Source: an uncultured virus (IMG/VR IMGVR_UViG_3300029286_000014)
Taxonomy: Duplodnaviria; Heunggongvirae; Uroviricota; Caudoviricetes
Length of the DNA stretch: 64,000 nucleotides
Direction: 5' to 3' (one strand)
IMG/VR virus record: IMGVR_UViG_3300029286_000014
The notes under the pieces are model-generated. The model had not been told where the DNA came from, searched no databases, and was given only the letters and a program-made list of their open reading frames with translations. A program made the position numbers and the translations under genes. Positions 6,892 through 49,190 of the stretch are shown in pieces (position 1 is the stretch's first letter; each line of letters begins with the position of its first letter).

Positions 6892-9450
6892 ATGGCCGAT
6901 ATTTTTAATACGTCTTCAACTCAAAAATTGTCTTCACAGATTTTCATGTCTAGAGATCAAATAAGATCGATGATATGTGAATATATGAAAGATTATCTTG
7001 AGCTTGAGAATGTTGACCTAACGAAAAGTTCATTTTTATCTTATCTAATTAATATAATATCAACCCTTACATCTAATCTTTTGTTTTACGAAGGATCAAT
7101 ATATAAAGAATTCTTTTTAACTAAAGCACAACTCCCAGAATCGGTAATCAATTTATCAGCATTTTTAGGGTATGATATTGTCAAAGCAGTTCCTGCAGAT
7201 GCTTCAGTAACAATGAATGTTCCTTTGGGATTTAGTTCAAATTCTGTAAAATTTCAAATACCAAAATATTTCAATTTTTATACCGATGCGTGTTCTTTTA
7301 TGACAACTTACACAACATATATTGAAGTAACTAACAATATTGATGTAAAAATTGAAGCTGATTTTGAATCATACAGATATAGAATTCCATATACATATGT
7401 TGATACCACTGATGGTGGGCCGGCATTCAAATTTGATCTTCCAGTTTTACAACAAAAGATTGTTCCAGATGTCAAATATATTGATGCGGATATCAAAGAC
7501 TATCAATTTCCTGAAGTAATGATCGATGTCGATAACTCACAACAATTATTTAAAACTGATGTTTATGTTACGCCTCCTGATACAACAGTTCCTATTTCTG
7601 AATATATAGAATATTATACCGAATATCAAAGTTTGTATCTCATTCCATTAAATGAAAGAGGGTATGTTTCAAGAAAAACACAGGAAGGAAGAAGAATAAC
7701 ATTTGGTAATGGTCTTGTTGGTGTTCAACCAACAGGAGGATCAAAAGTAGATATTAATTCATATCTAACTTATGGTGCATTAGGAAATGTTCCAGCAGGT
7801 ACAATACTTCGTGGTGACAAGGTTTATTGCACAATTGATAATCAAACTTTCTTAATTGAATATACTTGTATAAATACAATCGCTGCTGAAAATGGCGCAG
7901 ATGAAGAAAGCACAGACGAAATAAGAAGCAATGCTATAAAAAGTCTTGTATCAATGGATAGATTTGTGTCGGAACAAGATTATAAAAATGCAGACGTTAT
8001 TTTAGAAGGAACACCATTTGGAAGTAACTCATTAGCAATTCTTAAAAGATCAGATGTAAGATGTAATGAAATTCAGGTTTATACAACATTAAAATATCAA
8101 GATAGCACAAATGTAGTTGAAATTGTTCCAACAATCAATGCATCTTATAGTGAAGTAACTACTACACCATCAAATAGAATTCCAAAATACACAGAAATTA
8201 TTTCTGATGGAACATCGTATTTGACAATGTTTGATATTAAACCAGAAATTATGAATACTGTTGCAGTTTATGAATATGTTTTAAACTCTATATCCGTTGA
8301 TCCGTCTCTAGTTAATACAGAAAGACAGAGCTATTACGGAATTGAAATTGGAAAAATGGATGTAAGTGTTGACTCAACGAGTAATGCAGCCGTTTTTGTT
8401 CTTAATTATAATGCGGTTTCAGTAGATCCAACTGCTGCGTGCACATTTAAGATTCCTGCATTAAGTGTTGAATATGTGATGGATCACGATCCAATACAAA
8501 AAACATTTACTTTAACTTTTTCACCTTATACATTATTTCCAGAAGGATTTGTGAATATAATTCTTGATATTGAGTCAATAGAAACAAAAGCTTCTTATGA
8601 AGTTTCATTAACATTAAGAAGAGATTTATTTGATACAATGCAATCTAATTTAACCTACGATACAACAAGTAGCACTCTGGTTATTTTTGATATCCCAGTT
8701 GTTCTGACAGATTATTATCGAGGGTTGGCAGATAAAGATGCATTTGAAAGTAATTGTTTACAGAAGCTAGTTAATAATACATATTTTGAAAATAATCGTA
8801 TGCTTACGGACTTTGTGAATTTAAAATTTGCAAATACATTTGGTAATTTGGTAAATATGAAATACAATGTGGCTAGAAAGCCTCCGGTTATAGATTTTGT
8901 ATTTAATTATCCAATAGATTCATCTACTGGGTATAAATATATTATAAGTTCTGATCCAGTTGCTGAACTGATGGACTACAAAGGAAACTATTTAACAAAA
9001 TTGAGTTCAGGATGGAAACTAGAAAGACCAAGCACAAACGATGTTGTTTATGTTATACAAAGAGATCAAAAATATATTTTTAATGGGAGTTCATGGATAA
9101 TTCCGGTATTTAAAATACCACTAGAAATAAAAATTGAAGCATTTAAAGAAAGTTCATATTTTGGAAGTTCTGATGAATTAAAGAATGCTATTACCACAGC
9201 TCTATTTGATAATTTCAGTAGCAGATTTGGTATAAATATACAATTGTATAGATCCGAAATAATCAAGGTTGTTCAATCTGTTGATGGTGTTGACCACTGC
9301 AATCTGATTGAACCAAACTGTGATATATTCTTTGATTTTGATTTGAAAGATTTGACTCAAGATGAATTGATGTTATATTCCCCAGAATATGTTTATTTTG
9401 TTGCGCCTACTGGAACAAAATCAGGAAGTATCTCAATAAGGATTATTTAA
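6892..9450 (+). CDS. baseplate wedge subunit (T4 gp6-like)
   Basis: FLTKAQLPESV..L..FLGY, ITFGNG..G..P, YLT.GA.GNV, GADEES.DEIR and R.V...DY motifs. Confidence 0.8.
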   Translation: MADIFNTSSTQKLSSQIFMSRDQIRSMICEYMKDYLELENVDLTKSSFLSYLINIISTLTSNLLFYEGSIYKEFFLTKAQLPESVINLSAFLGYDIVKAVPADASVTMNVPLGFSSNSVKFQIPKYFNFYTDACSFMTTYTTYIEVTNNIDVKIEADFESYRYRIPYTYVDTTDGGPAFKFDLPVLQQKIVPDVKYIDADIKDYQFPEVMIDVDNSQQLFKTDVYVTPPDTTVPISEYIEYYTEYQSLYLIPLNERGYVSRKTQEGRRITFGNGLVGVQPTGGSKVDINSYLTYGALGNVPAGTILRGDKVYCTIDNQTFLIEYTCINTIAAENGADEESTDEIRSNAIKSLVSMDRFVSEQDYKNADVILEGTPFGSNSLAILKRSDVRCNEIQVYTTLKYQDSTNVVEIVPTINASYSEVTTTPSNRIPKYTEIISDGTSYLTMFDIKPEIMNTVAVYEYVLNSISVDPSLVNTERQSYYGIEIGKMDVSVDSTSNAAVFVLNYNAVSVDPTAACTFKIPALSVEYVMDHDPIQKTFTLTFSPYTLFPEGFVNIILDIESIETKASYEVSLTLRRDLFDTMQSNLTYDTTSSTLVIFDIPVVLTDYYRGLADKDAFESNCLQKLVNNTYFENNRMLTDFVNLKFANTFGNLVNMKYNVARKPPVIDFVFNYPIDSSTGYKYIISSDPVAELMDYKGNYLTKLSSGWKLERPSTNDVVYVIQRDQKYIFNGSSWIIPVFKIPLEIKIEAFKESSYFGSSDELKNAITTALFDNFSSRFGINIQLYRSEIIKVVQSVDGVDHCNLIEPNCDIFFDFDLKDLTQDELMLYSPEYVYFVAPTGTKSGSISIRII

Positions 9451-11831: not shown

Positions 11832-14800
11832 TTATGCTGGAAAGTTTCCAGACAATAAACTTGCCATAAGATCATTTTGTCCTGAACCACCATTTCCACC
11901 TGTATTTGAAACAGATGTTGTATTATTATTTGAAACATTTGTATTTGCAATAGATGAATTTCTTGTTGATGCAATTGACAACAATCCTTTTGCAATCATT
12001 TCATTCTGACTAGCTAATCCTGCTATTAAACCATCTGCAACCATGCTGGCCTCATTCTTTTTATTTCTTAAACTTGATTCTAAGAGACTATATCTATTTA
12101 GTCTTGATTTTGCTGCTGATTCTTTTCCTGTCATACCAGGAGCAGCATCACCAGCTTCTGTTTGATATTGCAATGCTTGTTGAGCATTTTGACTACTCTT
12201 TCCACCAACCGTTCCTGCATATGATTTTACATATCTAGCAGGTTGAACGTGCCATTTTTCTGAAACCCATCCAGGCATCTGAATCATTGGTCTAATCATA
12301 CCATATTTCGACAATAATCCCATACTTTCAAGTTCATCTGCAACAGGAGAATTTATATCTATAGCCAATCCTTTTTCATGAGGGGAACGTCCTGGTGTAG
12401 CAAATTTTTTGAGACCTCCACTTTTTCCACCTCTTGAAATAGATGCTTGATATGCGCTACTTCGATATGCTGATGTAACTTGTATATTTTTTCCAGTTTT
12501 TTGTTTGTATTCAGCTGCCATTTTTGCTAAATCCGATTTTACGTCTGGTTTCAATCCTTCAATATCAACTTTTGAGTGTTCTCTCACAACCCCTGGAAGG
12601 GATGTTGATAACCACCCAGCAATACTTTGAGCAGCAGAAACAGCTCTTTTTCCAGCTCCTTTTACAACACCACCAGCTTCTTTTGCAGTTCCAGCAGCAG
12701 CTTTTCCTACAGCTTTTGCTCCTTTTATAAGTTTTTCTGCAACGTTTCCAGCAAAGCTTGCTACATTCGAACCAAGACTTCCAAATATACTACTTTGTTG
12801 GTCAGGAGAAAATGCTTTAACAGCTCCTTTTACTGATCCAAAAATAGCGCCAACAATTCTATCACCAACTTCATCGAATTTATCCATGATTGCTTTAATC
12901 ATACCAATTTGAGAATCTTGTGAAGCATCAACATATTTTTTAGCTGACATTTTTCTAGCAGGGATTGCTTGTCTTCCTAATGATTCAACTTTTTGTAATG
13001 GCGAAGCACTTGAAGATACCAATGAATTCGGGGATGTTACTCCAGGAGCTGCGTCACCTATTAACCCAAGTCCTTGATCTGTTGCTTCCCCATGTGTTCT
13101 TGCATAATCTCTAGCTCGCGCATCTTTTGCTTTTTTGTTTTCTTCAGCAATCTTTTTAGCATCTGCATCAGCCTTTTTATTTTGCTCTTCTAGGAATTTA
13201 GTTGCCTTATCCCCACCGAGAGTATCACCAACTAAACCAAATATTTTTTTCCATCCACCCATAATCATTTTTATAGTTTTGAATGGATGTAAAAATAGAT
13301 TTATTATAAATTTTATTGTGAAAATAGCAGCTTGAAATGCTGGTAATACATTGACTTTAATGAACTCAACTATTGGTGAAATCCATTTCTGCCACCAAGG
13401 TTTAATTGTTTTTTGATAAAAATCAACAGTTTGTTTGATGCCAGGAACATTATTATATGCCCATTTTCCAAAATCAGAAAGTTGTGTTTTTATCCATTTT
13501 GATGCTGAATCAAATGCATCATTTATTGGATTTACAATAAATGCATACCACATTGATTTTATTCCAACCCAGACAGCCCCTAAACTATTTTTAACAACCT
13601 TCCAAGCAAGACTAAATGCAAGTGCTATATTTTTACCACCAATTGCTCCAGCGACACCACCAACAATAGCACCAACAATAGCTCCAATACCGGTTCCAAT
13701 TACAGGAACAAAACTACCAACAGCCGCACCTAACAATGCTCCTTTAGTAGCTCCCCATTTTGCTCTCTTCTTTGGATCGTCACCTACGCCACCAATAGCA
13801 CCGCCTACTGTTGAAAAAACTTTCTCTGATGTTGTTAATTCACCTTCTTTACCTTTTTTACCTTTTTTATCATACCATTCTTTTGCATGTGCTCTTCCAC
13901 GAACTGCATCTACCAGTGTCATTAGTGTTCCAGCAATTCCAGCAATACCCCCAACACCTAATTTCATTGTAAATCCAACCATTCTAGTAAACAATTTGAC
14001 GATGCCTGCTAAATGTGTGAATATCTTGCTTTTGACTAAAATTGCAGCTAGAGACCCAATATTCATTAAAGCAAAACCAATTCCCTTTAATCCCATTCCC
14101 ATAATATTTTTAATGAATCCCCATGCAAATAAAAGAACTGTTCCAATTAATCCTTTTTTCTTTTCCATTTTTTCAGGTATGTAACCTGTATTTTTTGCAA
14201 TTTTCTGTAAGCTTTTTGTGTTCTTTTTTTCTATAGAACCAAGAGCATCTTTCTGTTCTTCAGATTTCTTTTCTCTTCTCTTCCAGTTCTTAAAAAAATC
14301 TAACATGCCATTTCCAGCTTTCGTGGCATCACCTTTTTTCTTTTCACCAAACATATTACTAAAGTCAAAATTGAAAAGCCCAAATGATTTTTCAATAGGG
14401 GTAACAATTTCATTCTCATCAAGTTGTACTTTAGGTCTTTTTCCTTTTTTAACTCTACCCCCTCTTTTCATTTGTGGGAGTTCTACTTCACCGCCCATTC
14501 CTAGAACTTCTATCAATTTTTCAAGAATTCCTTGATTCTCTTTTGGTTTATCACCTGCTTTATTTGTTAGATCATCAGGATTTCCACCAAACAATCTTAT
14601 TAATTGATCTAATTTAGGATTAACTGTTGCATATATCATTCCAAGAATTGTCGCAGAATTCTGAAGAGGACTCGTTGATCTTGGAAGTTGATTGAAGTAT
14701 TTTCCTTTTGGTCTGAATAAAAATTTTAATACTCCTTTGAATACAGTAGCGGCACTAATCAATCCTTTCGTTATTGGATTCTTAGTTAATCCTTCAAATA

Positions 14801-15872
14801 ATGATGCAGTAAATTCACTTCCTAATCCAACCATAGAAAGTCTAAGTTTTCTAATTTCAATAGTCATTTTTGACTTATCTAATGCTTCGGTCATTGTTTC
14901 TGTCAATTTTCCAACAGGTGCAATGACTTCAGCTGGATGAACTTGTACAGTTCCTCCTTTTTTAACGAAACCCCCTTCTGCTAATTTTGGGGGGACTCTG
15001 TTTGGATCGTTACCACCTTTTCCAAAATCTAATTTAAATCCAGATTTTATTGCGCCAAGAGCACCACCTATCATTTTAAACGGCATTAACAGTGCTTTGA
15101 AACCGAGACTTAGTGCTTTAAATGGAAGTGTTAAAATAAATTTACTCATTCCAACAATTCCTTTGAACGCCAATCCTATTGCTTTCATTGGAAGAGTTTG
15201 TATAAACTTTCCCATCTCCCACAATCCACGTAACGACGCACCTACTATTTTAAACGGGAATTTTAATAAACTCTTGAATCCTTCTCCTGCAATTGTCAAT
15301 AATTCAGCAAAACTTTTACCTTTGAATTGACCAAAAAATCCTCTTATTTTATTTCCTAAATAAGAAATTGCTTCACCGAGATTTTCTTTAATCTTATCAG
15401 AGAAATCTCTAAACACACCGCTTTCCATAAACTTAGCTGCAAAATAGCCAAATATAGGGGTGCTAGCAGCGAGAGACATTGCAACAGCATTTGTTTTATT
15501 TAATCTTACATCTTCTTGTATGGATTGAGAAACTTTAAATATTGTTTCAGCACCAGTTTTAGCAGTCGCTTCAAGAATTTTTTTTGCGGACCTGGTTAAT
15601 GTATCAACTGTAAGATTCAAATTTCTTAGAACTTTTTTTGTTCCTCTTTCGAACTCAACAATTCCTTCAGTATAACCAATCTCATTTTCATGTATTAGTT
15701 CTGAAATTTGTTTTTGCTCTTTTGTTATCGCTGATATAGCTTTTGCAGTTTCTTCCATATTGTAAGCTTCTGGATTCGGCTGTTCAGCGTGTTTGGAGAC
15801 AGAACTCATTTGTGATGAAAATTGTTGATCTATTGATTGGAGTTCTTCTTCAGAAATAAAATTTGCAGGCAT
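11832..15872 (-). CDS. tape-measure-like tail protein with a C-terminal M15 (D-Ala-D-Ala carboxypeptidase fold) peptidoglycan hydrolase domain
   Basis: 1346 aa, helical Gly/Ala-rich repeats, hydrophobic segments, VTSAYRS...SPHEKGLAIDI...EKWHVQ. Confidence 0.75.
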   Translation of the reverse strand: MPANFISEEELQSIDQQFSSQMSSVSKHAEQPNPEAYNMEETAKAISAITKEQKQISELIHENEIGYTEGIVEFERGTKKVLRNLNLTVDTLTRSAKKILEATAKTGAETIFKVSQSIQEDVRLNKTNAVAMSLAASTPIFGYFAAKFMESGVFRDFSDKIKENLGEAISYLGNKIRGFFGQFKGKSFAELLTIAGEGFKSLLKFPFKIVGASLRGLWEMGKFIQTLPMKAIGLAFKGIVGMSKFILTLPFKALSLGFKALLMPFKMIGGALGAIKSGFKLDFGKGGNDPNRVPPKLAEGGFVKKGGTVQVHPAEVIAPVGKLTETMTEALDKSKMTIEIRKLRLSMVGLGSEFTASLFEGLTKNPITKGLISAATVFKGVLKFLFRPKGKYFNQLPRSTSPLQNSATILGMIYATVNPKLDQLIRLFGGNPDDLTNKAGDKPKENQGILEKLIEVLGMGGEVELPQMKRGGRVKKGKRPKVQLDENEIVTPIEKSFGLFNFDFSNMFGEKKKGDATKAGNGMLDFFKNWKRREKKSEEQKDALGSIEKKNTKSLQKIAKNTGYIPEKMEKKKGLIGTVLLFAWGFIKNIMGMGLKGIGFALMNIGSLAAILVKSKIFTHLAGIVKLFTRMVGFTMKLGVGGIAGIAGTLMTLVDAVRGRAHAKEWYDKKGKKGKEGELTTSEKVFSTVGGAIGGVGDDPKKRAKWGATKGALLGAAVGSFVPVIGTGIGAIVGAIVGGVAGAIGGKNIALAFSLAWKVVKNSLGAVWVGIKSMWYAFIVNPINDAFDSASKWIKTQLSDFGKWAYNNVPGIKQTVDFYQKTIKPWWQKWISPIVEFIKVNVLPAFQAAIFTIKFIINLFLHPFKTIKMIMGGWKKIFGLVGDTLGGDKATKFLEEQNKKADADAKKIAEENKKAKDARARDYARTHGEATDQGLGLIGDAAPGVTSPNSLVSSSASPLQKVESLGRQAIPARKMSAKKYVDASQDSQIGMIKAIMDKFDEVGDRIVGAIFGSVKGAVKAFSPDQQSSIFGSLGSNVASFAGNVAEKLIKGAKAVGKAAAGTAKEAGGVVKGAGKRAVSAAQSIAGWLSTSLPGVVREHSKVDIEGLKPDVKSDLAKMAAEYKQKTGKNIQVTSAYRSSAYQASISRGGKSGGLKKFATPGRSPHEKGLAIDINSPVADELESMGLLSKYGMIRPMIQMPGWVSEKWHVQPARYVKSYAGTVGGKSSQNAQQALQYQTEAGDAAPGMTGKESAAKSRLNRYSLLESSLRNKKNEASMVADGLIAGLASQNEMIAKGLLSIASTRNSSIANTNVSNNNTTSVSNTGGNGGSGQNDLMASLLSGNFPA

Positions 15873-39664: not shown

Positions 39665-40603
39665 ATGTTCTTTTTTAAAAAATATAGGGAGGTTTATTTT
39701 ATGAAAGAATTAGAGGAGATGAAAGATCATGATTTATCTGTGGATCTATCGCTATCAGTTTATATAATATATGCGATATATGAGTGGGGGGAACTATCGC
39801 AAAAAATGATGAATTTGAAGATTTTTCGGCATGAAGATCACAGAAAGATCAATCCAGTTAGCACAAGATTATTTTTTGAATGGAGGTATGGGCATATTCC
39901 TAAAATATTTGAAAAATTTACGAGTGATATGATCTCCACAATTTTTTCATCAATACATGGAAAATTAAAAAAGAAAAATTTGGCTAAAGCCTTTGGAATT
40001 CCTGACTCAGATATAACAAGGGGAAATTTCTATGCATTTCATCCTGAATTCTACAATATGCCAATATCACAAATTTTTAAAATAGTTTTTCCTAGAACAT
40101 CATACGCCGATCCTAATTTGGGATGTCTCGAAAATGAACAATTTAATGAAAAAAATAGAATTTATCGAGATGAAAAAATAATGATCACAGATTTTGAATC
40201 TATCCCCCCCTGGAGGCGGAGGACAGAACCCCTTCCAGAAGAAGTTATTTCTTCCTCCAGAAATCGAACAAATAAAAAGTCTAACAAACTGCACGAAATA
40301 GAAGTTGCTCCACCAGTAGTCCCTGTTCTTCCTGAATTACCCAAAAATGGGAATTCTTCTGCTAATGAGATGATTCCAATTAGTTCATTAGGTTCTGAAA
40401 AATACGTAGAGGAGTTTCGGTCGGAACAAAATAAGTTTCGCCCTAAACCTTTGGTAACATCAACACCAACGGTTTTGGATAACTTCGAAGCGGTTCTTCA
40501 TACTCTTACAAAAAATAAATACAGGGTAAAAAGATTCCTATTAACAACAGCGACAGCAGAATTTTTTCTGAAAGACTCTAAGAAGGAGAGAACAGATGAT
40601 TGA
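39665..40603 (+). CDS. hypothetical protein (start probably ATG 39701)
   Basis: SD GGGAGG lies upstream of 39701. Confidence 0.55.
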   Translation: MFFFKKYREVYFMKELEEMKDHDLSVDLSLSVYIIYAIYEWGELSQKMMNLKIFRHEDHRKINPVSTRLFFEWRYGHIPKIFEKFTSDMISTIFSSIHGKLKKKNLAKAFGIPDSDITRGNFYAFHPEFYNMPISQIFKIVFPRTSYADPNLGCLENEQFNEKNRIYRDEKIMITDFESIPPWRRRTEPLPEEVISSSRNRTNKKSNKLHEIEVAPPVVPVLPELPKNGNSSANEMIPISSLGSEKYVEEFRSEQNKFRPKPLVTSTPTVLDNFEAVLHTLTKNKYRVKRFLLTTATAEFFLKDSKKERTDD

Positions 40604-40900
40604 AAATTTAAAAGCAGAAATCGTCAGGATGATTAAAAAAGAAGACATGTTTGATATCCTGGTGACATCAGAGGAGGGGAAGGGAAGCCATTGCGTATAC
40701 TGTCCAATCTGCTCATATACGGATATACTACTTGTAGGAAAAAAAACAATGGAAAATGGGGAAATCGTAAAATCAGTTCTCCATTACCATGTTCCAAAGA
40801 ATGGTGAAGAGTATACTGTATGTAGATGTGGTGTAAAATCCATTCTAATAGATCCAAAATTAGTAATTCCGGAACAATATAGATAAATACTGCGGGTTAG

Positions 40901-40955
40901 ACATTTGGACTTCATTTTTAAATAGAACAAATATTTAAAAATGGAGTTCAAATGT
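40901..40955 (+). promoter_or_regulatory. 24-bp RBS-sequestering hairpin with a GAACAAA loop
   Basis: 40901-40924 pairs with 40932-40955 (two G-U pairs) and covers the GGAG SD of the HNH gene. Confidence 0.75.
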
Positions 40956-40956
40956 T

Positions 40957-41877
40957 ATGATATGCGATTATGGATGTGGAAGAGAAGCAAAATATACATT
41001 CAAAAATGGAAAGTATTGTTGTGAAAGTTGGGTTTCATATTGTCCAAAACAAAAAGAAAAAAATAAAAAAGGACAAGTTAAAAGATATTCACTTGATCCG
41101 AAAACAAGAAAAAATAAAATTGGAAATTGTGAATATTGTAACAAAGAACATGATGGAACTTATGCGAGTGGAAGATTTTGTTCTAAGAAATGTGCAAGAA
41201 AATATTCATCTAATATACACAGAGAAATGATAAATGAAAAAGTCTCTGCAACTTTAAGAAATGAGAAGTATAACAAAGAAAAACACATCTACAATTTAAC
41301 ATGCTTATGTTGCGAAAATTCATTTCAAAAAGAAATACATATTTCATCATACGAGCAAAAAAGATTTATTGCGATATGTGATAAATGTAAAAAAACAGCA
41401 AGGGAAACTGATTTAGATAATTTAGCTTTCAGATTTTGGTTAAAATTTAAGAAACAACAAAGAACTGTTGATGAAAAAATAAATAAACTTTCTTGGGATG
41501 AATTACCACATGCAAGAAAAAGAAAAAAAGTTCTTGAAGAACAAAACTACAAATGTAGTACATGTGGAATTGAAGAATGGAATGGTAAATTAATAACTCT
41601 TAGCCTCCATCATAAAGATGGAAATAATAAAAATAATAGTAGAGAAAATCTTCAATTCTTATGCCCAAATTGTCATACACAAACTGAGACATATGGTATA
41701 AAAAGTTTAATAAAAAGGAACCCTTCTGCTGTTGGAAAAAAACAAGTTTCAGATGAAGATTTATTAAAATATCTTCTTGAAAGTAAAAGTATTATTGCTG
41801 GGGTTCGTAAGGCAGGAATAACAGATACAAGAAGAGCAAAAAGATTGCTTAATAAATATTTTTCATTAAATAAATGA
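40957..41877 (+). CDS. HNH homing endonuclease with an N-terminal Cys-rich module
   Basis: CSTCG...LHHKDGNNKNNSRENLQFLCPNCHTQT. Confidence 0.9.
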   Translation: MICDYGCGREAKYTFKNGKYCCESWVSYCPKQKEKNKKGQVKRYSLDPKTRKNKIGNCEYCNKEHDGTYASGRFCSKKCARKYSSNIHREMINEKVSATLRNEKYNKEKHIYNLTCLCCENSFQKEIHISSYEQKRFIAICDKCKKTARETDLDNLAFRFWLKFKKQQRTVDEKINKLSWDELPHARKRKKVLEEQNYKCSTCGIEEWNGKLITLSLHHKDGNNKNNSRENLQFLCPNCHTQTETYGIKSLIKRNPSAVGKKQVSDEDLLKYLLESKSIIAGVRKAGITDTRRAKRLLNKYFSLNK

Positions 41878-41951
41878 TGCGCGATGGTGTAACAGAAACA
41901 CGATGGTCTCATAAGCCATAACTCCCAGTGCAACTCTGGGTTGCGCAACCA
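41878..41951 (+). tRNA. tRNA-Met (CAT)
   Basis: Cloverleaf, anticodon arm ATGGT-CTCATAA-GCCAT, encoded CCA. Confidence 0.85.
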
Positions 41952-41953
41952 AT

Positions 41954-42042
41954 ATTTGATGGGAGTCGAACACCATCAAATGCAGATCACCAGACAGGTC
42001 TGTGTACCTCCTGAATGTCGGCGGGGTAGCCGTTGTCTGGAA
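41954..42042 (+). ncRNA. unclassified pseudoknotted RNA, copy 1
   Basis: Second copy at 42679..42775 with pairing-preserving changes. Confidence 0.7.
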
Positions 42043-42145
42043 CTCAAAACAATACTTTTCCTTGCTAGGGATTAATCAACAAAATGTAACAAATAATAAA
42101 GATGATATGTTGTATCTTCTTTACTAAAAATAGCGAGGATTAAAA

Positions 42146-42676
42146 ATGAAAAAAGAAAAATTGGTCGATGGGTATCTGGTTTATCTAAAAGAAGATGAAC
42201 CTAAGTATGGTTTTTTTAGAGGAATTCACAAAGCAGTCAAGAGTTTTGGAAATGCCGCAGGAACCGCTGGGGAGACAATGGATCGGGGGCAAGCTGGAAT
42301 GGCAGAATTAAACAAAAAAATTGATGCAGTAGTTGCAAAAATGCCTGAAATCAGAAAATATCTACAGTGGATAGGGATAGGTGTTGTATCAATTATTGGG
42401 TTAGCAGTTTTTTTGAAGATTGTAAAAGCCGTTGTTCTTAATTCAAGAAAATGCTATAGAGTTTGTAAAACAAAGTCCAACGATTCACTAAGTAAAATAT
42501 GCATGTTGAATTGCAAAATTATGATTGCAAAACAAACAATTGCGGCATTAAAACAAGCTTGTGCATCAAGTAAAAATCCTGAAAAATGCAAAGCTAAAAC
42601 TGAAAAGAAAATTGCGGCTCTCGAGAAAAAGATTGCAGAACTGCAAAAGAAAGTTTCATATTATAAAGTAAATTAA
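42146..42676 (+). CDS. putative virion protein with a membrane segment and Cys-patterned C-terminus
   Basis: Late-like motif upstream. CASSKNPEKCKAK resembles the proteins at 3859 and 4494. Confidence 0.6.
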   Translation: MKKEKLVDGYLVYLKEDEPKYGFFRGIHKAVKSFGNAAGTAGETMDRGQAGMAELNKKIDAVVAKMPEIRKYLQWIGIGVVSIIGLAVFLKIVKAVVLNSRKCYRVCKTKSNDSLSKICMLNCKIMIAKQTIAALKQACASSKNPEKCKAKTEKKIAALEKKIAELQKKVSYYKVN

Positions 42677-42678
42677 GT

Positions 42679-42775
42679 ATTTGATGAGTTCACCCCCTCA
42701 TCAAATGCAGACCACCAGATAGGTCTGTCAGCCTCCTTTTTATTTTTAATCCGGTGGGGTAGCCGTTGTCTGGAA
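42679..42775 (+). ncRNA. unclassified pseudoknotted RNA, copy 2
   Basis: See copy 1. Confidence 0.7.
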
Positions 42776-42805
42776 TCCAAATTTTTGTTTGAAAGGAGAA
42801 ACACA

Positions 42806-43171
42806 TTGCCCAAAGAAGGAGATGTTGTTTTAATTTATAGGGATAATAGACCAATGACATTTGCCGAAATTCATGAGATAACATCAAACGAGAAAAAGAA
42901 TTGGTGGAATGTAGATTTTATTGGTTTGTCGTTACCTCTAACAAAATTCACATGGATTTTAAGAATGGAACAGTTAGACGGTGAAGATTTCACAATGGGA
43001 GGAACCCCAGTAAAAATAACTTCTTTAGAGAAGTTATTAAATGTACAAGATAAAAAAACTAAAGTTCTTGAAATACCAAAAAAGAAACAGGAAATAAAGA
43101 AGATGGGAAAGGTGATTCAATTAAGACCAAAAAAAGATGAACCACCAGAAGATGAACCATTAATTGCTTAA
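42806..43171 (+). CDS. hypothetical protein (TTG start)
   Basis: SD AAAGGAG upstream of TTG 42806. Confidence 0.55.
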   Translation: MPKEGDVVLIYRDNRPMTFAEIHEITSNEKKNWWNVDFIGLSLPLTKFTWILRMEQLDGEDFTMGGTPVKITSLEKLLNVQDKKTKVLEIPKKKQEIKKMGKVIQLRPKKDEPPEDEPLIA

Positions 43172-43178
43172 AGGTTAT

Positions 43179-43252
43179 TGGGAAATAGTTCAACAGCAGA
43201 ACTCTGGCCTTTGACGCCAGCAATCTAGGGGCAGAACCTAGTTTCCCTGCCA
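43179..43252 (+). tRNA. tRNA-Gln (TTG)
   Basis: Cloverleaf, CTGGC-CTTTGAC-GCCAG, CCA end, atypical T-loop GGCAGAA. Confidence 0.85.
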
Positions 43253-43266
43253 ACAAAATTTCTTGC

Positions 43267-43427
43267 GCTGCCTGTGAGTGGCCACCTGAAAATTACCAGA
43301 CGATGGATAAAAGCAGCCACTTGACTCCATCGTCTGTACTACGTCAGGGAGATTACCGTTTCGTAATGTCGGTCGAATAGAATGAGTGACTATGAATCCA
43401 ACCATTCTATAAAAGTCTCTGGGCAGC
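43267..43427 (+). ncRNA. unclassified ~160-nt multi-helix RNA with a pseudoknot
   Basis: Five nested helices plus a 7-bp loop pairing, GC-richer than its surroundings, directly after tRNA-Gln. Confidence 0.65.
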
Positions 43428-44220
43428 AACTTTAAAAATAAAAAGGAGAGTGAAAATGCTAGGAGCTTTAGCGATTATATGCACCACAATAGTTTTATTA
43501 TTATTGATTTCTTGGGGTATTATGTATGCTACTCTGAATAAATGTAAACATAAATATAATCCACCAGAAAATGGAATTCAAAAATGTATAAATTGTGGTG
43601 TTATACGTTATGATGAGTGTAACCATTCATGGAAAAGTATTGATGCTATAACTATAGGACCTACTATGGTTAATACTATACAATGTAAAAATTGTGGGGA
43701 AATCGTATATAGGACATTTAATTCACTAAAAGGAGAATAATTATGGGTTTCTTGAATATGTTTGGAGGAAAACCAGGTTATGTTTGTATTCGCTCTAAAA
43801 AAGATCCTCGGTGGAATTATGGGGAAAGGGTGGAGTCTCTAGTTGTTATGGCGGGTATACATCCTGTAATAACCGAAAAGATTGAAGAGCTAAAAAAATT
43901 CTATGGAGAACAGCCAGAGGATTTGGAATACAGTTGCATGAAAGATTAGAAGTACACCATTCCCCTTATCATAAAAATAAGGGGGATTTAAAAAGACTAC
44001 AAATACAAAGGAGAATAAATAATGATACAGAATATACAAGAACTTGCTTCAGAAGTTGCAAAAAGAGAAGGAAAAGAGTGTGAAGTAATAATTGGAAATG
44101 TTAGGGAAGTTTTAGCAATTATAAGCGATATGATTCATGAAGATCCGCATGTCGCTACAATTTTGGAAGAAAATGGTTTCAGAAGGGAGAAAGAAAAATC
44201 TATAGAACCAAAGTAATTAT

Positions 44221-44291
44221 GCGGGGATAGCTCAACGATAGAGCCCACAGATTGTACTGTGGAGATTCCTGTTAAACTCAGGATCCCCACT
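44221..44291 (+). tRNA. degenerate tRNA-like gene (Thr TGT-like, 6-nt anticodon loop, no CCA)
   Basis: D arm GCTC/GAGC, T arm TCCTG/CAGGA, acceptor stem with one mismatch. Confidence 0.5.
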
Positions 44292-44297
44292 AAAAAT

Positions 44298-44372
44298 ACT
44301 CCTGTAATCTAACGGTTAGGATATCAGACCTTCAATCTGAGTATAGCAGTTCGATTCTGCTCGGGAGTGCCA
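44298..44372 (+). tRNA. tRNA-Glu (TTC)
   Basis: TCAGA-CCTTCAA-TCTGA, TTCGATT T-loop, CCA. C at position 33. Confidence 0.85.
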
Positions 44373-44412
44373 ATATTCCAAACACAGTAACAGATTTATT
44401 CATTTGTGTTAG

Positions 44413-45051
44413 GTGAATTCAACTACAAAAACGAAAGGAGAAATTATGAGTAAAGTGATTTTTGAAATACAAGTAGAAATTGATGAGAAGTGCAGTATGA
44501 AAAAACATTATAGACCATATATCTGGGAAGATAGAAATTTATTGAGGGGGAAATGGTATAAACTGAAAGGAAAGAATAAATCTATAATGGTAACATCTTT
44601 AGAAACCTCAGATGTCGGTGTGCTTTTAATAAATGGTATTTCATCTAAAAGTTTTCTAAAGAACTATATTTGGGATAATGAAGATTTAAATGCGCCACAT
44701 ATATGTGGTATTGAAGTGGAAATTCCTGGGCCATCTTTAGATGATTTATACTCAAAAAGACAGCAATATATTTTTAATAAAATAATAGAATTGAATGTTT
44801 CAAAATTAAAGAAAGAATATAATGATATAGAAAGTTGTCTAGCAGATATTTCTTCCCATCAAGCATTTTGGACTACGAGAGAGCAAATTTTTGATTCTGT
44901 GACCTCTTTTGATGATAGAATATCTTTTAGTACTTTGTATAATGATCTAGTGTTTTTAGAAAGCTGTGGTTTGATAAAAAGTAAAAAACTATGTGGGCCT
45001 AAAAATAAAACTGGATATTTCGTTACAACATTTAAAATGGTTGATGAATAA
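44413..45051 (+). CDS. hypothetical protein with a possible C-terminal winged-helix domain
   Basis: ISFSTLYNDLVFLESCGLI resembles a Fur/wHTH recognition helix. Confidence 0.4.
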   Translation: MNSTTKTKGEIMSKVIFEIQVEIDEKCSMKKHYRPYIWEDRNLLRGKWYKLKGKNKSIMVTSLETSDVGVLLINGISSKSFLKNYIWDNEDLNAPHICGIEVEIPGPSLDDLYSKRQQYIFNKIIELNVSKLKKEYNDIESCLADISSHQAFWTTREQIFDSVTSFDDRISFSTLYNDLVFLESCGLIKSKKLCGPKNKTGYFVTTFKMVDE

Positions 45052-45079
45052 TTCATCACTAGTACAATTTAAAAAATAT

Positions 45080-45158
45080 GGTGTGTTCGCCTAGTCTGGC
45101 CTATGGCACATGACTGTCTATCATGATTTCAGGAGTTCGAATCTCCTACACACCGCCA
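45080..45158 (+). tRNA. tRNA-Asp (GTC)
   Basis: CATGA-CTGTCTA-TCATG, TTCGAAT, CCA. Confidence 0.9.
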
Positions 45159-45164
45159 AAATAT

Positions 45165-45240
45165 TCACCCTTAGCTCAGTTGGTAGAGCGAATGACTGTT
45201 AATCATTAGGTCCCTAGTTCGAGCCTAGGAGGGTGAGCCA
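45165..45240 (+). tRNA. tRNA-Asn (GTT)
   Basis: Canonical 76-nt cloverleaf, AATGA-CTGTTAA-TCATT, CCA. Confidence 0.95.
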
Positions 45241-45269
45241 AAATTAAACTTAAAAGAGGATCTATAAAA

Positions 45270-45530
45270 ATGAGTCTTTTACAAAAGTATTTAAAATTAT
45301 TAACTGAAGGATACAAGCAAAGTACCATTAGAAGAACAAGACAAAATAAAATTAATTCATCGACTGGAACTATTGCTGTATCAATGGCCAGAGAAAAGAA
45401 TGACTCTCTTTATCGCAGAATGATTATGTACAAGAAACTATACATCATGGCCAAAAAACAACTAGAGAGAAAATATCGTTCAAAGTCTACACAAAGAGCG
45501 AGAAAGTTAGCATCAGGAACAAGAAAATAA
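45270..45530 (+). CDS. small basic protein, putative internal head protein
   Basis: N-terminal LLQKYLKLLTE, very Lys/Arg-rich. Confidence 0.55.
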   Translation: MSLLQKYLKLLTEGYKQSTIRRTRQNKINSSTGTIAVSMAREKNDSLYRRMIMYKKLYIMAKKQLERKYRSKSTQRARKLASGTRK

Positions 45531-45731
45531 ATGTACAGAAGGAGGTGAATTATGGATTTTAAAGAATTAACAGCACAAGATATTCTTAGAGTTCTAGTTA
45601 AGCAACAATTCTATGAATTTTATGAAGGACCTTTTGTAAAATATATAGAAGGTGAACCTGATGCAAAAACCAAAGAAGAAATTTTGAAAGAGATCGAATC
45701 TCTTTTTAATTTTTAAATTTGGAGGTGAATT

Positions 45732-46262
45732 GTGAAACTAGCGATTGTTGATGGAATTGAAGCGAGCCCATGTTTAGGATGCGGATATTGCTGTCTTCAG
45801 GCACAATGTGGATTATCCGTAAGAGTTCATACTTATAAAGAAATATGTCCATCTTTATACTGGGGTGAAGCACGAAAAAGGCATTTATGCAGAGCAGTTG
45901 AAGGAGATTTGATAGTAACCAATGGAAAAGAATTATCTATTGGTGAAGGTTGTTGCAGTCCTCTAAATTCCTGGAGAAAAGAAATCAAAAATAGAATTCC
46001 AGAAAAACTCGCGTACGTAAATTCTAAAAATATAAACAAAATCAATTTCGATAAATTTTTTCAAGAGTTTGTATTTATTCTTGGAAAACAGTGGCTATCA
46101 GGAGATGTTGTGGCATTAACTTTAGCAGCTTATAAAAGAAGCATTATCGAAAAATTCGGAATATCTGATAGAGACGCATCTCAATTATGCAAAAGAATTC
46201 ATCACATAATGAGAGAACAACAATCTTCTTTTGTGAAAGGATTCATTGGTGAAATAGATTAA
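45732..46262 (+). CDS. Cys-rich putative Fe-S/Zn-binding protein
   Basis: CLGCGYCC....C...CP..C..GCC. Confidence 0.5.
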   Translation: MKLAIVDGIEASPCLGCGYCCLQAQCGLSVRVHTYKEICPSLYWGEARKRHLCRAVEGDLIVTNGKELSIGEGCCSPLNSWRKEIKNRIPEKLAYVNSKNINKINFDKFFQEFVFILGKQWLSGDVVALTLAAYKRSIIEKFGISDRDASQLCKRIHHIMREQQSSFVKGFIGEID

Positions 46263-46267
46263 ATTAT

Positions 46268-46341
46268 GGCACTGGGTGGGAGGTCGCGCGAACAGTACCC
46301 AATCAAACTTTGGAATACTTCGAGCCCATCTGGTGCCGCCA
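46268..46341 (+). ncRNA. 74-nt CCA-terminated tRNA-like hairpin RNA
   Basis: 13-bp terminal helix plus a GCCA end and TTCGAG, but no cloverleaf. Confidence 0.55.
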
Positions 46342-46355
46342 AATAATTATATTAT

Positions 46356-46429
46356 CTAGCTGTAGCTGAGGAGATTAGCACGCGGTTTGGGGCCGTGAGA
46401 CGCTGGTGCGATTCCAGCCAGCTGGACCA
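46356..46429 (+). tRNA. tRNA-Pro (TGG)
   Basis: CGCGG-TTTGGGG-CCGTG, CCA. Confidence 0.88.
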
Positions 46430-46811
46430 TCAAATCTTTTTAAAAGGAGAAAAAATGATAACGTGGAAATGTAAAGATTGTGAATTTAAGTGTACTCTAG
46501 TCTCTGGTAGTGCCTCATCCTCTCCTATATCATGCCCATACAACTATAGTAATTCAGATTGGATGTGCACTGAGGTTTTAGATGATATGCTAAATCCCAT
46601 AAGAGAAGTAATTGATTCTAAATATAAAATAAAATGGGGGGACAAATTTTTTGATGAATTTACTGTCGAAGTTTTTGGGGTTCCAGTTGAGCAACATTTA
46701 AATTTTTATAGAATAACAAGAGAAGCAAGAGAGAAACTAAAACCAAAATTTGAAAATAATATATTGTATATATTTTTAGATGTTCCTAAATAAAAAATGA
46801 AGGAGAATAAC

Positions 46812-47156
46812 ATGGAAGAAACAATCGAAAAGAGGGGGGCGTTTTTAGAGAGCCTACAAAGAAATAACAAACAGATCCGGTTAGATCGAGCTCAAGCAAT
46901 TGGAGATGACACACAACTGGGATACAAAAGGGCAGTTGAAGATCTTGAATTGAGTATTAAAAAGATGAGGAGAGAGCAAGAAAACATGCTAGACCTAAGT
47001 CCTACTAACGCTCAGAGTCTTGTATTGGCGAGTGATTTCGATTCTAATGCTTATATAGCAAAAGATATCGAAATCGGAGTCAAAATCAGGAATGCTGAAA
47101 TTAAACTAGAAATTGCAAAAGCGAGGTATGGTTATCTCTTTGGAAAGGAGGTTTAA
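46812..47156 (+). CDS. coiled-coil hypothetical protein
   Basis: SD AAGGAG, first gene before the VWA/PurA-like pair. Confidence 0.6.
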   Translation: MEETIEKRGAFLESLQRNNKQIRLDRAQAIGDDTQLGYKRAVEDLELSIKKMRREQENMLDLSPTNAQSLVLASDFDSNAYIAKDIEIGVKIRNAEIKLEIAKARYGYLFGKEV

Positions 47157-47157
47157 T

Positions 47158-48054
47158 ATGGGGCATGGCGGATATTCATCGACGTGGGACAACTCAAAAG
47201 GTTCTTATTCTTATGATTCTAGTATTAGAGATTTAAGAGCAAAGGACAGAGGATTCTATACAAAAAGTAGAACAGAAATATTTAACTCAAAAAACATCAA
47301 CAGTTCAATGAACCCTTATGGGGTGCAGATAAGAGAATCAAGAGATTCTATAGAACACCCAAACTCAGTTCCAATAATTATTGGTATTGACGTAACTGGA
47401 TCCATGGGATCTGTTCCTCATTATCTAGTAAAAGAGGGACTCCCAAAGATAATGGAAAAGATTATTCTAAATGGAATATTAGACCCTCAAGTTTTGTTTG
47501 TAGCAATCGGAGATCATGAATGTGATAATAGCCCACTTCAGATAGGGCAATTTGAATCTTCTGACTCTTCTCTTGACAAATGGCTAACGGATACCTGGTT
47601 AGAAGGTGGCGGGGGAGGAAATGCTGGTGAGTCTTATTTATTGGCGTGGTATTTTGCAGCAAATCACACTGCAATAGACAGTCTTGAAAAAAGAGGAAGA
47701 AAAGGATTTTTATTCACAATTGGGGATGAACCAGTTCTTTCAGAAATTCCATCATCTGCGCTGAAAGGAATAATGGGCATCGATCAGCCTCAAAGTTATA
47801 CAGCGCAACAGTTATATGAAAAAGCGAAAGAAAAATATCACGTTTATCATATTCATATAAAAGAAACTTCTTCTGGAAGTAGACAAAGAGTGATAGATGA
47901 ATGGAAACAGTTGCTTTCAGATAATTTGTTGGTTGCAAATAGACACACAGAAGTTTCTGGAATTATTTCAGAAATTATTTTAAAAGAAAAGGATTCAATT
48001 GTTTCTGGTATTTCTACCCCTTCAATTCATGATTCTGTAGAGGAAATGTTGTAG
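47158..48054 (+). CDS. von Willebrand factor A (VWA) domain protein
   Basis: MIDAS-like DVTGSMG, GGGGN..ESY, FTIGDE. Confidence 0.85.
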   Translation: MGHGGYSSTWDNSKGSYSYDSSIRDLRAKDRGFYTKSRTEIFNSKNINSSMNPYGVQIRESRDSIEHPNSVPIIIGIDVTGSMGSVPHYLVKEGLPKIMEKIILNGILDPQVLFVAIGDHECDNSPLQIGQFESSDSSLDKWLTDTWLEGGGGGNAGESYLLAWYFAANHTAIDSLEKRGRKGFLFTIGDEPVLSEIPSSALKGIMGIDQPQSYTAQQLYEKAKEKYHVYHIHIKETSSGSRQRVIDEWKQLLSDNLLVANRHTEVSGIISEIILKEKDSIVSGISTPSIHDSVEEML

Positions 48055-48062
48055 GAGTTAAA

Positions 48063-49190
48063 ATGAAAACAGCAGTTATTGGGCTAGGATTTGGAGACGA
48101 AGGAAAGGGCAGAGTCGTAGATTGGCTCTGCTCTTATCGGCCCGATTCTTTAGTGGTAAGATTTTCAGGAGGATCTAATGCAAGTCATAAAGTTTATAAA
48201 CCAGATGGTTCTGGATTTCATGCTTTTTCAAATTTAGGAAGCGGAACATTCAGAGGATGCCCAACCTACTGGTCAGAGTTTTGTACTTTCGATCCTGCCG
48301 ATTTATTGTTTGAGGCCGAATACATCAAAAAAGCAGGAGTTGAAAATTTTAAACTCTATGTGAATTTAGATTGTCCAGTTGTTACCACATGGGATAAAAG
48401 ATACAACAAGATTCAAAATGATATGACTTTTCATGGGAGTTGCGGTGTCGGTCTAGGAGCTACTCATGAAAGAGAAGAAAATCATTATTCTCTTAGGGTG
48501 AGAGATTTATTTTATTATGATCTGAGATCACAAAAAGTAACAGAAATTATAAAATATTATAAATCTAAAGGAATCAAAGCAACCCTAGAAGAGATCGAAC
48601 TATTCTTCATTTGTGTAGAGAAATCTAAAGAATTATTCACACCAGTTGAAAGCATCCCTCAATCTGTTAATTATCTATTTGAAGGATCACAAGGATTAAT
48701 GTTGGATCAAAATTATGGTGTTTTTCCACATGTAACAAGAAGCAATACAGGAACACAAAACATCATTAAAATGGGATTTGATATGAATTCCTTCTTTCAT
48801 GATAGGTGTTTTCTTGTCACTAGAGCATACCACACTCGACATGGAAATGGATATCACCCAACCGACCATATTCCGCATAATATTAAAGAGAATCCCTATG
48901 AACAAAATGTAGAAAATTATCAGGGAAAGTTTAGAAGGGGATTACTTGATGTAAGTTTGTTGAAATACGCAATTGAAAAAGATAAGATTTTAAAAGGTAA
49001 TCAGTGTGATATGTCAATTGTTATAACATGTCTCGATTTGATAGAAAATGAATGGAGATTTGTTGAGAATGGGGTAATTGTAAATTGTTTAGATGAATAT
49101 GAATTTCTAACAAAGATTAAAAAATTACTACCCTATCCTATAGCGGTTAGTCGTACACCTTATGGGAAAATCGAAATATTTACACTCTAA
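48063..49190 (+). CDS. purA: adenylosuccinate synthetase-like protein
   Basis: GLGFGDEGKG, VRFSGG.NASH, SCGVG.G, FEGSQG.MLD..YG.FPHVT.S, TRHGNG. Confidence 0.85.
   Translation: MKTAVIGLGFGDEGKGRVVDWLCSYRPDSLVVRFSGGSNASHKVYKPDGSGFHAFSNLGSGTFRGCPTYWSEFCTFDPADLLFEAEYIKKAGVENFKLYVNLDCPVVTTWDKRYNKIQNDMTFHGSCGVGLGATHEREENHYSLRVRDLFYYDLRSQKVTEIIKYYKSKGIKATLEEIELFFICVEKSKELFTPVESIPQSVNYLFEGSQGLMLDQNYGVFPHVTRSNTGTQNIIKMGFDMNSFFHDRCFLVTRAYHTRHGNGYHPTDHIPHNIKENPYEQNVENYQGKFRRGLLDVSLLKYAIEKDKILKGNQCDMSIVITCLDLIENEWRFVENGVIVNCLDEYEFLTKIKKLLPYPIAVSRTPYGKIEIFTL

Follow-up and report, generated by a model that had tools for sequence, protein, structure and literature searches.

A 161-nt structured element, probably an RNA, behind a tRNA-Gln gene of an uncultured freshwater giant phage

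Behind a tRNA-Gln gene of an uncultured freshwater phage lies a 161-nt element that is real and clearly bounded and is probably an RNA. As judged from sequence comparisons, it is a single-lineage orphan, from which nothing general can be inferred yet. Our tentative reading, by analogy with phage T4, is that it may be an accessory structured-RNA module, co-transcribed with the tRNA, whose 5' end would be made by tRNA maturation and which would persist either on its own, as a small stable RNA, or as a 5' block that protects the downstream message. If expressed and stable, it would be a compact small RNA of a phage tRNA cluster with clear boundaries and natural alleles with and without it, amenable to deletion or heterologous expression.

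The stretch of DNA that was analyzed (the window, 64,000 nt) is part of a large phage genome with 32% GC, and its genes include those for a large terminase, a baseplate protein, a ligase and a PurZ-like protein. A nearly identical IMG/VR record of 64.7 kb (G001) is rated 31% complete, and the three sequencing runs containing the full stretch are lake-water metagenomes, two of which may be the source of the window; none of the runs with the stretch is recorded as RNA. Between 41.8 and 51.3 kb, small plus-strand genes are interspersed with tRNA genes. The element sits in this region, and all its neighboring genes are on the plus strand. Its surroundings are as follows.

42785..43171, plus strand: upstream gene, 128 aa, ending 8 nt before the tRNA, no family match
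43179..43252, plus strand: tRNA-Gln(UUG) with an encoded CCA, non-canonical (Rfam RF00005, 44.8 bits)
43253..43266, plus strand: spacer of 14 nt, ACAAAAUUUCUUGC, predicted single-stranded in the context fold
43267..43427, plus strand: structured element, 161 nt, between tRNA-Gln and the next small gene
43428..43455, plus strand: leader, A/U-rich and unstructured (from sequence and context fold), with a Shine-Dalgarno GGAG at 43445-43448
43456..43740, plus strand: downstream small gene, 94 aa from the ATG, with an N-terminal hydrophobic (membrane) helix and four CxxC-type cysteine pairs
43254..43429, plus strand: 176-nt unit composed of spacer and element, with the direct repeat CAAC on either side (43251-43254 and 43427-43430)

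The tRNA-Gln has the anticodon loop CUUUGAC and ends in CCA at 43250-43252, and the element starts 14 nt after this CCA, as had been noted in a preliminary description of the sequence. The tRNA is odd in several respects: its T-loop is GGCAGAA (without the usual UUC), its D-loop lacks GG, and there is a U1-U72 mismatch. ARAGORN misses 43179-43252 with default settings and finds it in mitochondrial mode only. Several tRNAs of this phage are non-canonical, including one at 44221-44291 (plus strand) to which ARAGORN assigns a two-base anticodon. On the other side, 17 nt separate the element from the GGAG of the next gene, whose product has a weak PHROG match to phrog_7696 (function unassigned). 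The element contains no plus-strand open reading frame of at least 30 aa, in agreement with the earlier description of it as non-coding, and a 63-aa frame that spans it on the minus strand has no family matches. Between 43018 and 43950, the plus strand shows neither a promoter-like nor a terminator-like site.

The predicted fold comprises the following parts, with element position i corresponding to window position 43266+i.

43267..43273, plus strand: 5' strand of the closing helix P1, GCUGCCU, pairing with 43421-43427 (pair probability 0.98-1.0)
43421..43427, plus strand: 3' strand of P1, GGGCAGC (pair probability 0.98-1.0)
43276..43282, plus strand: GAGUGGC, candidate pseudoknot strand with its partner GCCACUU at 43317-43323; in the minimum free energy (MFE) fold it pairs with 43371-43375 and 43417-43419 instead
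43285..43348, plus strand: Domain 1, made of a 5-bp helix, a 7x7 internal loop, a perfect 11-bp helix and an 18-nt loop including GCCACUU
43352..43367, plus strand: small hairpin AUUAC-CGUUUC-GUAAU, 43352-43356 pairing with 43363-43367 (probability 0.97-1.0)
43377..43410, plus strand: hairpin AUAGAAUG / 18-nt loop / CAUUCUAU, 43377-43384 pairing with 43403-43410 (probability 0.9-1.0)

The closing helix and the two helices of Domain 1 came out as the preliminary description had drawn them. In Domain 1, CCUGA/UCAGG joins 43285-43289 to 43344-43348 (probability 0.98-1.0) and encloses the perfect 11-bp helix, 43297-43307 with 43326-43336 (probability 0.86-1.0). The MFE fold lengthens P1 by G8-U154 and by 10-12/151-153, and the model ensemble further contains 13-17/105-109 along with 10-12/151-153. 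The second domain of the earlier drawing is retained in its inner helix, AUAGAAUG/CAUUCUAU, but not in its outer one. Although GGAGAUU and AGUCUCU (43348-43354 and 43414-43420) are complementary, this helix shares G82 with UCAGG, has an ensemble probability of 0.00, and is displaced by the AUUAC/GUAAU hairpin and by the pairings of 10-17 with 151-153 and 105-109. The nested fold as first drawn reaches only -41.9 to -47.1 kcal/mol, versus -58.2 kcal/mol for the MFE fold.

The element folds far better than expected from its composition. Dinucleotide shuffles have a mean MFE of -37.2 kcal/mol (sd 3.6), which places the -58.2 kcal/mol of the element at a z of -5.81, and none of 200 shuffles was as good. 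Among the 200 windows (160 nt each) of a sliding scan across 40-48 kb, the off-register windows over the element are beaten only by a hairpin at the start of an HNH endonuclease gene and by one coding window. At 46.6% GC versus a window mean of 31.7%, which bears out the earlier remark that it is GC-richer than the genome, the element ranks in the top 0.44% of 161-nt windows, and the remaining leading GC islands are tRNA genes. In a fold that includes the flanks, the element and the tRNA cloverleaf are independent domains, and the spacer, the leader and the Shine-Dalgarno are left unpaired. The z score, the GC island, the independent folding in context and the lack of a separating promoter-like or terminator-like site thus fit the earlier proposal of a structured RNA within the tRNA transcript, as far as folding models go, and they count in favor of an accessory RNA module. 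On the other hand, each of the four robust helices is an inverted repeat with Watson-Crick pairs only, which forms equally in DNA or on the minus strand (the reverse strand has a z of -3.96). The helices alone do not show whether RNA or DNA is concerned, or which strand; for the plus strand we rely on the orientation of the genes.

Domain 1 also carries the candidate pseudoknot of the preliminary description. The 7-bp complementarity between GAGUGGC and GCCACUU is real, with a G-U first pair and a duplex energy of -11.6 kcal/mol, but it competes with nested pairings. It was equalled in 39 of 5000 shuffles of both segments and is the best of 21 segment pairs examined; after multiple testing over these 21 pairs it is not significant, only suggestive. 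With both strands reserved, the nested fold falls to -49.2 kcal/mol from -58.2, so the knot must repay ∼9 kcal/mol plus any knot penalty. In addition, the connector from the loop strand GCCACUU to the 11-bp stem is only 2 nt, and a 3' connector of this length across a 7-bp stem is tight by pseudoknot geometry. This is the sole crossing pairing in the element, a simple H-type arrangement of 10-16 with 51-57 across 31-41/60-70.

The same description had called the element ribozyme- or aptamer-like. It would then be a catalytic or ligand-binding RNA with tertiary structure, for example a self-cleaver trimming the tRNA trailer in the manner of theta ribozymes. The position 14 nt behind a phage tRNA is the context of theta ribozymes as given in PMC10879173, and both the loop-to-junction complementarity and the 7x7 loop, which has no Watson-Crick option, would suit such an RNA. 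We nevertheless find this idea very unlikely. No self-cleaving ribozyme or riboswitch family matches the element at E values up to 10, the knot is a plain H-type one without P3, P1.1, P4 or an identifiable catalytic C, and the energy model prefers the nested fold, at -58.2 kcal/mol, over the knotted one, which has -49.2 plus no more than -11.6 with the knot penalty still to be paid. The element is moreover dispensable in a relative, as detailed below.

Searches for known families were run at two levels. With Rfam 15 at gathering thresholds, only tRNAs are found in the window. At E values up to 10 over 43100-43560 on both strands, the only matches are tRNA-Gln and a structure-less lncRNA model (E=1, 22.4 bits versus a threshold of 55), the latter being noise; no family therefore matches the element, a check that the preliminary description had proposed for a known motif. 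Several candidates were considered and rejected. A tRNA or tRNA-like RNA (acceptor stem plus a T arm with a GUUCRANYC-type loop) gives no partial match to the tRNA model at E values up to 10, and relaxed ARAGORN settings return only low-threshold calls on the opposite strand. An HDV-like or theta ribozyme matches no HDV-type Rfam model, and P3, P1.1 and P4 are absent by inspection. The cores of hammerhead, twister and hairpin ribozymes find support in none of the Rfam models at E values up to 10. For a riboswitch, the Shine-Dalgarno is unpaired in the context fold, there is no plus-strand terminator-like site, and no family matches at E values up to 10. Finally, the ends of the element are not copies of the tRNA-Gln tail: in local alignments of 43253-43440, 221 of 300 shuffles are as good in sense and 289 of 300 in reverse complement.

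That phage tRNA clusters can harbor additional small RNAs has been known since T4. In that phage, rnaD (119 nt) starts 1 nt after tRNA-Arg, and rnaC (139 nt) follows 6 nt behind rnaD; the annotation lists both as small stable RNAs. They resemble the element in being non-coding RNAs (119-139 nt) that follow a phage tRNA gene directly and in the same orientation, and rnaC, like the element, folds far better than its shuffles (z -4.6). In contrast, rnaD is not unusually stable (z -0.8), and rnaC has a tRNA-type T arm, GGGUUCGAAUCCC, whereas the element has none. A covariance model of the element (R1, see below) gives no score at the rnaC/rnaD coordinates even with filters off, and there is no sequence or model similarity. 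The element would thus be analogous to rnaC/rnaD, not homologous.

It is well established that structured RNAs occur next to phage tRNAs (PMC10879173, PMC12286853). Theta ribozymes, minimal HDV-like ribozymes described in PMC10879173 as lying directly downstream of tRNAs in gut Caudoviricetes phages with a proposed role in 3' trailer processing, are likewise small structured RNAs immediately behind phage tRNAs. They differ in their HDV double pseudoknot and catalytic C in J4/2, while the element is ∼3 times larger and lacks that topology. GOLLD and ROOL RNAs, which PMC12286853 places "often near tRNA islands" of phages, share with the element a location by tRNA islands in phages or prophages, and this adds to the case for an accessory RNA. 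However, they are much larger (many GOLLD RNAs exceed 800 nt according to PMC12286853), are conserved across many genomes and are Rfam families, neither of which the element matches. A survey of structured RNAs in IMG/VR mentions tRNA-like candidates (PMC10690425).

To search for relatives, we used R1, which was built from the single sequence with 36 base pairs from the four robust helices and the small hairpin. With a score of 213.6 bits, R1 picks out the element in the window, in G001 and in the JGI contig from which locus L020 comes. L020 is also the only locus found when the 128-aa protein is compared with JGI metagenome contigs. All full-length copies (G001, L020, runs X1-X3) are 100% identical and probably come from the same phage population, not from independent ones. 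Covariation cannot be assessed because these copies are identical, which counts against the accessory-RNA reading, and a conserved core, as expected of a ribozyme or aptamer, is not definable because no diverged full-length copy was found. In INPHARED, neither blastn "distant" with 43150-43460 nor megablast with 40000-48000 gave a match, and the flanking proteins (128 and 96 aa) have no relatives in IMG/VR. Twelve IMG/VR loci were fetched with the 313-aa protein (47113-48054); what they have in common with the window is a three-gene PurZ module and not the tRNA region. In these loci and their whole records, blastn-short, nhmmer and R1 find no element (best non-self E 1.4, 11.3 bits). Nor does R1 find it in any of five records of large-terminase relatives (four 51-53% identical; the fifth, a 6-kb contig, stems from the very phage under study), and its absence from the 12 PurZ-module and four large-terminase records is a further point against the accessory module. 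Pattern scans gave a similar picture. The tRNA-Gln anchor pattern has no match in IMG/VR. An element pattern with 22 specified bases has seven matches there, all coding look-alikes and none recognized by R1, and the same pattern finds 109 stretches in GTDB genomes, with R1 scoring in none of the 80 scanned. The search for structured homologues near phage tRNA clusters suggested by the preliminary description therefore came back empty for INPHARED, the IMG/VR relatives and the pattern scans of IMG/VR and GTDB.

A diverged relative did emerge when the contigs of four public runs were compared with 42700-44300. The freshwater sediment run X6 contains a phage that is roughly 80-87% identical, in which 45 of 344 positions of the 128-aa gene (record 10) and 11 of 70 positions of the tRNA-Gln are changed. 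Two contigs with one and the same tRNA-Gln variant part right after the CCA. In record 11, the spacer and element positions 1-14 come next, with 8 further differences; after one inserted A there follows GCCACCUGA, an exact match to element positions 15-23. That GCCACCUGA is kept between flanks differing by 13-20% favors an accessory RNA module. Record 12, in contrast, runs from the tRNA-Gln straight into AAUCUUUAAAAAU... and then AAGGAGA, a ribosome-binding leader that resembles the window's own leader behind the element (AACUUUAAAAAU...AAGGAGA). Because this motif is a generic one among such phages, seen as well after tRNA-Pro at 46430, in L012 and in G016, record 12 does not prove that the same downstream gene follows. 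The 176-nt unit is thus present in one genotype and absent from another of a related phage, which makes it a dispensable cassette, and the close relative without it speaks against the accessory module. The simplest history is that the element predates the split of both lineages and was then lost from some genomes by microhomology deletion, insertion of the 176-nt unit being a possible alternative. In the lake-water run X3, otherwise an exact match, an 18-kb contig stops at 43293 inside the element and the next starts at 43515; the gap (43294-43514) could be strain variation or an assembly gap and proves nothing.

There are two further explanations. One is that the element is a neutral structured spacer with no function, for example eroded former tRNA genes or a palindromic insertion, which would agree with its being an orphan, dispensable in the relative and without covariation support. 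This is unlikely in our view: a z of -5.8 and a GC excess of 15 points are unlikely to persist neutrally in a genome with 32% GC, no residual tRNA similarity is seen, and a relative with ∼20% divergence has kept the 5' core GCCACCUGA unchanged. The other is set at the level of DNA, the unit being an insertion/deletion cassette (a non-autonomous mobile element or cargo driven by a homing endonuclease) with an incidental fold. One tRNA-Gln variant with and without the unit in a single metagenome, the CAAC repeat that flanks the 176 nt, the HNH gene 1.4 kb upstream and the different inserts found at the same position in G016 and L012 speak for such a cassette. Even so, we rate it as rather improbable. 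Within this partial genome, the 64-kb window and the 64.7-kb G001 each have one copy of the element, and 17 related records gave no further copy. Of the features of a MITE-like element, a flanking direct repeat and presence/absence are seen, but the 7-bp inverted repeat lies not at the ends of the unit but internally at its 5' side. A 4-nt repeat fits microhomology deletion equally well. The element is also dissimilar to the tRNA tail.

The slot behind tRNA-Gln was then compared in six phages, three of which (the window, G016 and L012) have a structured insert there.

Window: 161-nt structured element behind tRNA-Gln
G016 (149 kb, large terminase 51% identical): 7 nt after tRNA-Gln, a 108-nt fold, then an A/U-rich leader and the next gene
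G016 insert, L138 11593..11700, minus strand: 12-bp closing helix and UUCG hairpin, z -3.0
L012: 22 nt behind tRNA-Gln, a roughly 115-nt tRNA-like RNA (9120-9235, plus strand)
L005: tRNA-Gln, then directly a ribosome-binding site
L007: tRNA-Gln, then a short A/T-rich leader and the next gene
L002: tRNA-Gln, then another tRNA

The arrangement around the G016 insert is that of the element: it comes after a tRNA-Gln(UUG) and a short spacer, is closed by a long terminal helix, and precedes an A/U-rich leader and the next gene. Its occurrence in the same position supports the accessory-RNA reading. The insert differs in its length of 108 nt, in its helices and in the canonical tRNA that precedes it; it has no Rfam match, and when aligned with the element 213 of 300 shuffles score as well, which makes it an analogue and not a homologue. 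In L012, 9177-9232 gives a partial tRNA match of 16.9 bits. These findings suggest that the tRNA-Gln trailer is a habitual home for structured modules. The RNAs at 9120-9235 in L012 and at 15880-16100 in L002 (both plus strand) are tRNA-like, with good T arms (GGUUCGAUUCC) and large 5' extensions; both are missed by ARAGORN and lie inside tRNA arrays of PurZ-bearing phages. A tmRNA gene is found in the same 14-kb stretch as the G016 insert.

The layout of G016 (tRNA-Gln, fold, leader, ATG) would also suit a cis-acting 5' leader of the downstream membrane/zinc-ribbon gene, that is, a stabilizer against 5'-end-dependent decay or a protein-binding operator instead of a free RNA. The position of the element 17 nt before the GGAG of that gene, with no terminator between, is in line with this. 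We consider such a role possible but not likely, since the Shine-Dalgarno is not sequestered in any predicted fold and no expression platform is therefore visible, the relative has a ribosome-binding leader directly behind its tRNA without the element, and none of the neighboring proteins matches an RNA-binding family.

An accessory RNA module, the reading we tentatively prefer, could arise as follows. One plus-strand transcript would comprise the 128-aa gene, the tRNA, the element and two small downstream genes. Host tRNA maturation would free the tRNA, with RNase P acting at its 5' end and an endonuclease cut plus exonuclease trimming in the 14-nt trailer. The tail RNA remaining after tRNA excision would then begin with the element at its very 5' end, where the terminal 7-11-bp helix and the three internal hairpins would form a compact, nuclease-resistant body. 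If the A/U-rich leader were cut as well, this body might persist as a free small stable RNA; otherwise it might stay on the downstream message and protect it as a block at its 5' end. T4 provides the precedent, with rnaD and rnaC made likewise behind tRNA-Arg, and release by tRNA processing, which the preliminary description had put forward, is a reasonable inference from it. Unlike T4 rnaC, however, the element has no T arm or CCA that would explain handling by RNase P or the CCA enzyme. A bolder view, to which we give little credence, is that the element belongs to an undescribed class of small pseudoknotted RNA cassettes in tRNA trailers of freshwater giant phages, gained and lost as units, with different cassettes per slot and acting in their own right (for example as a self-processing RNA or as a decoy for a host nuclease or defense).

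Other features of the window were observed along the way. The HNH endonuclease gene (40957-41877, plus strand) ends 1 nt before tRNA-Met, ∼1.4 kb upstream of the element. The hairpin at its start (40896-40960, plus strand) has ∼25 bp and buries both the ribosome-binding site and the ATG. No other fold signal in 40-48 kb is as strong (sliding-scan z about -9 to -10), and the hairpin looks like translational masking of a homing endonuclease. A second structured repeat is present in two copies (41952-42050 and 42677-42781, plus strand) with 81% column identity, one directly 3' of tRNA-Met and the other directly 3' of the stop codon of the open reading frame 42146-42676. Each copy opens with the hairpin AUUUGAUG..CAUCAAAU, which shows a compensatory change, followed by conserved blocks ending in GGGGUAGCCGUUGUCUGGAA; a C-to-U change preserves a long-range CCAGAyA/UGUCUGG pairing. 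This repeat has no Rfam match and no similarity to the element, and a 20-nt block of it has no matches in IMG/VR.

A 15-nt exact identity, AAUCCAACCAUUCUA, links 13972-13986 to 43395-43409 in the element (blast E 0.035 in 0.59 Mb). On sequence grounds, a transcript of the element would be antisense here to the message of a minus-strand gene for a 1346-aa tail/lysin-like protein (11832-15872), but this may be chance. Further downstream, a 74-nt tRNA-shaped stretch (46270-46343, plus strand; GGCACUG...CUGGUGCC then GCCA) is found just 5' of tRNA-Pro, within the highest GC island of the window, and is called by neither ARAGORN nor Rfam. Finally, the three-gene module at 46797-49190 (plus strand) encodes proteins of 119 aa, 313 aa (phrog_2971) and 375 aa (adenylosuccinate-synthetase/PurZ-like, phrog_1211). 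It is conserved in 12 otherwise unrelated IMG/VR contigs, and its gene content hints that the phage may make 2-aminoadenine DNA.
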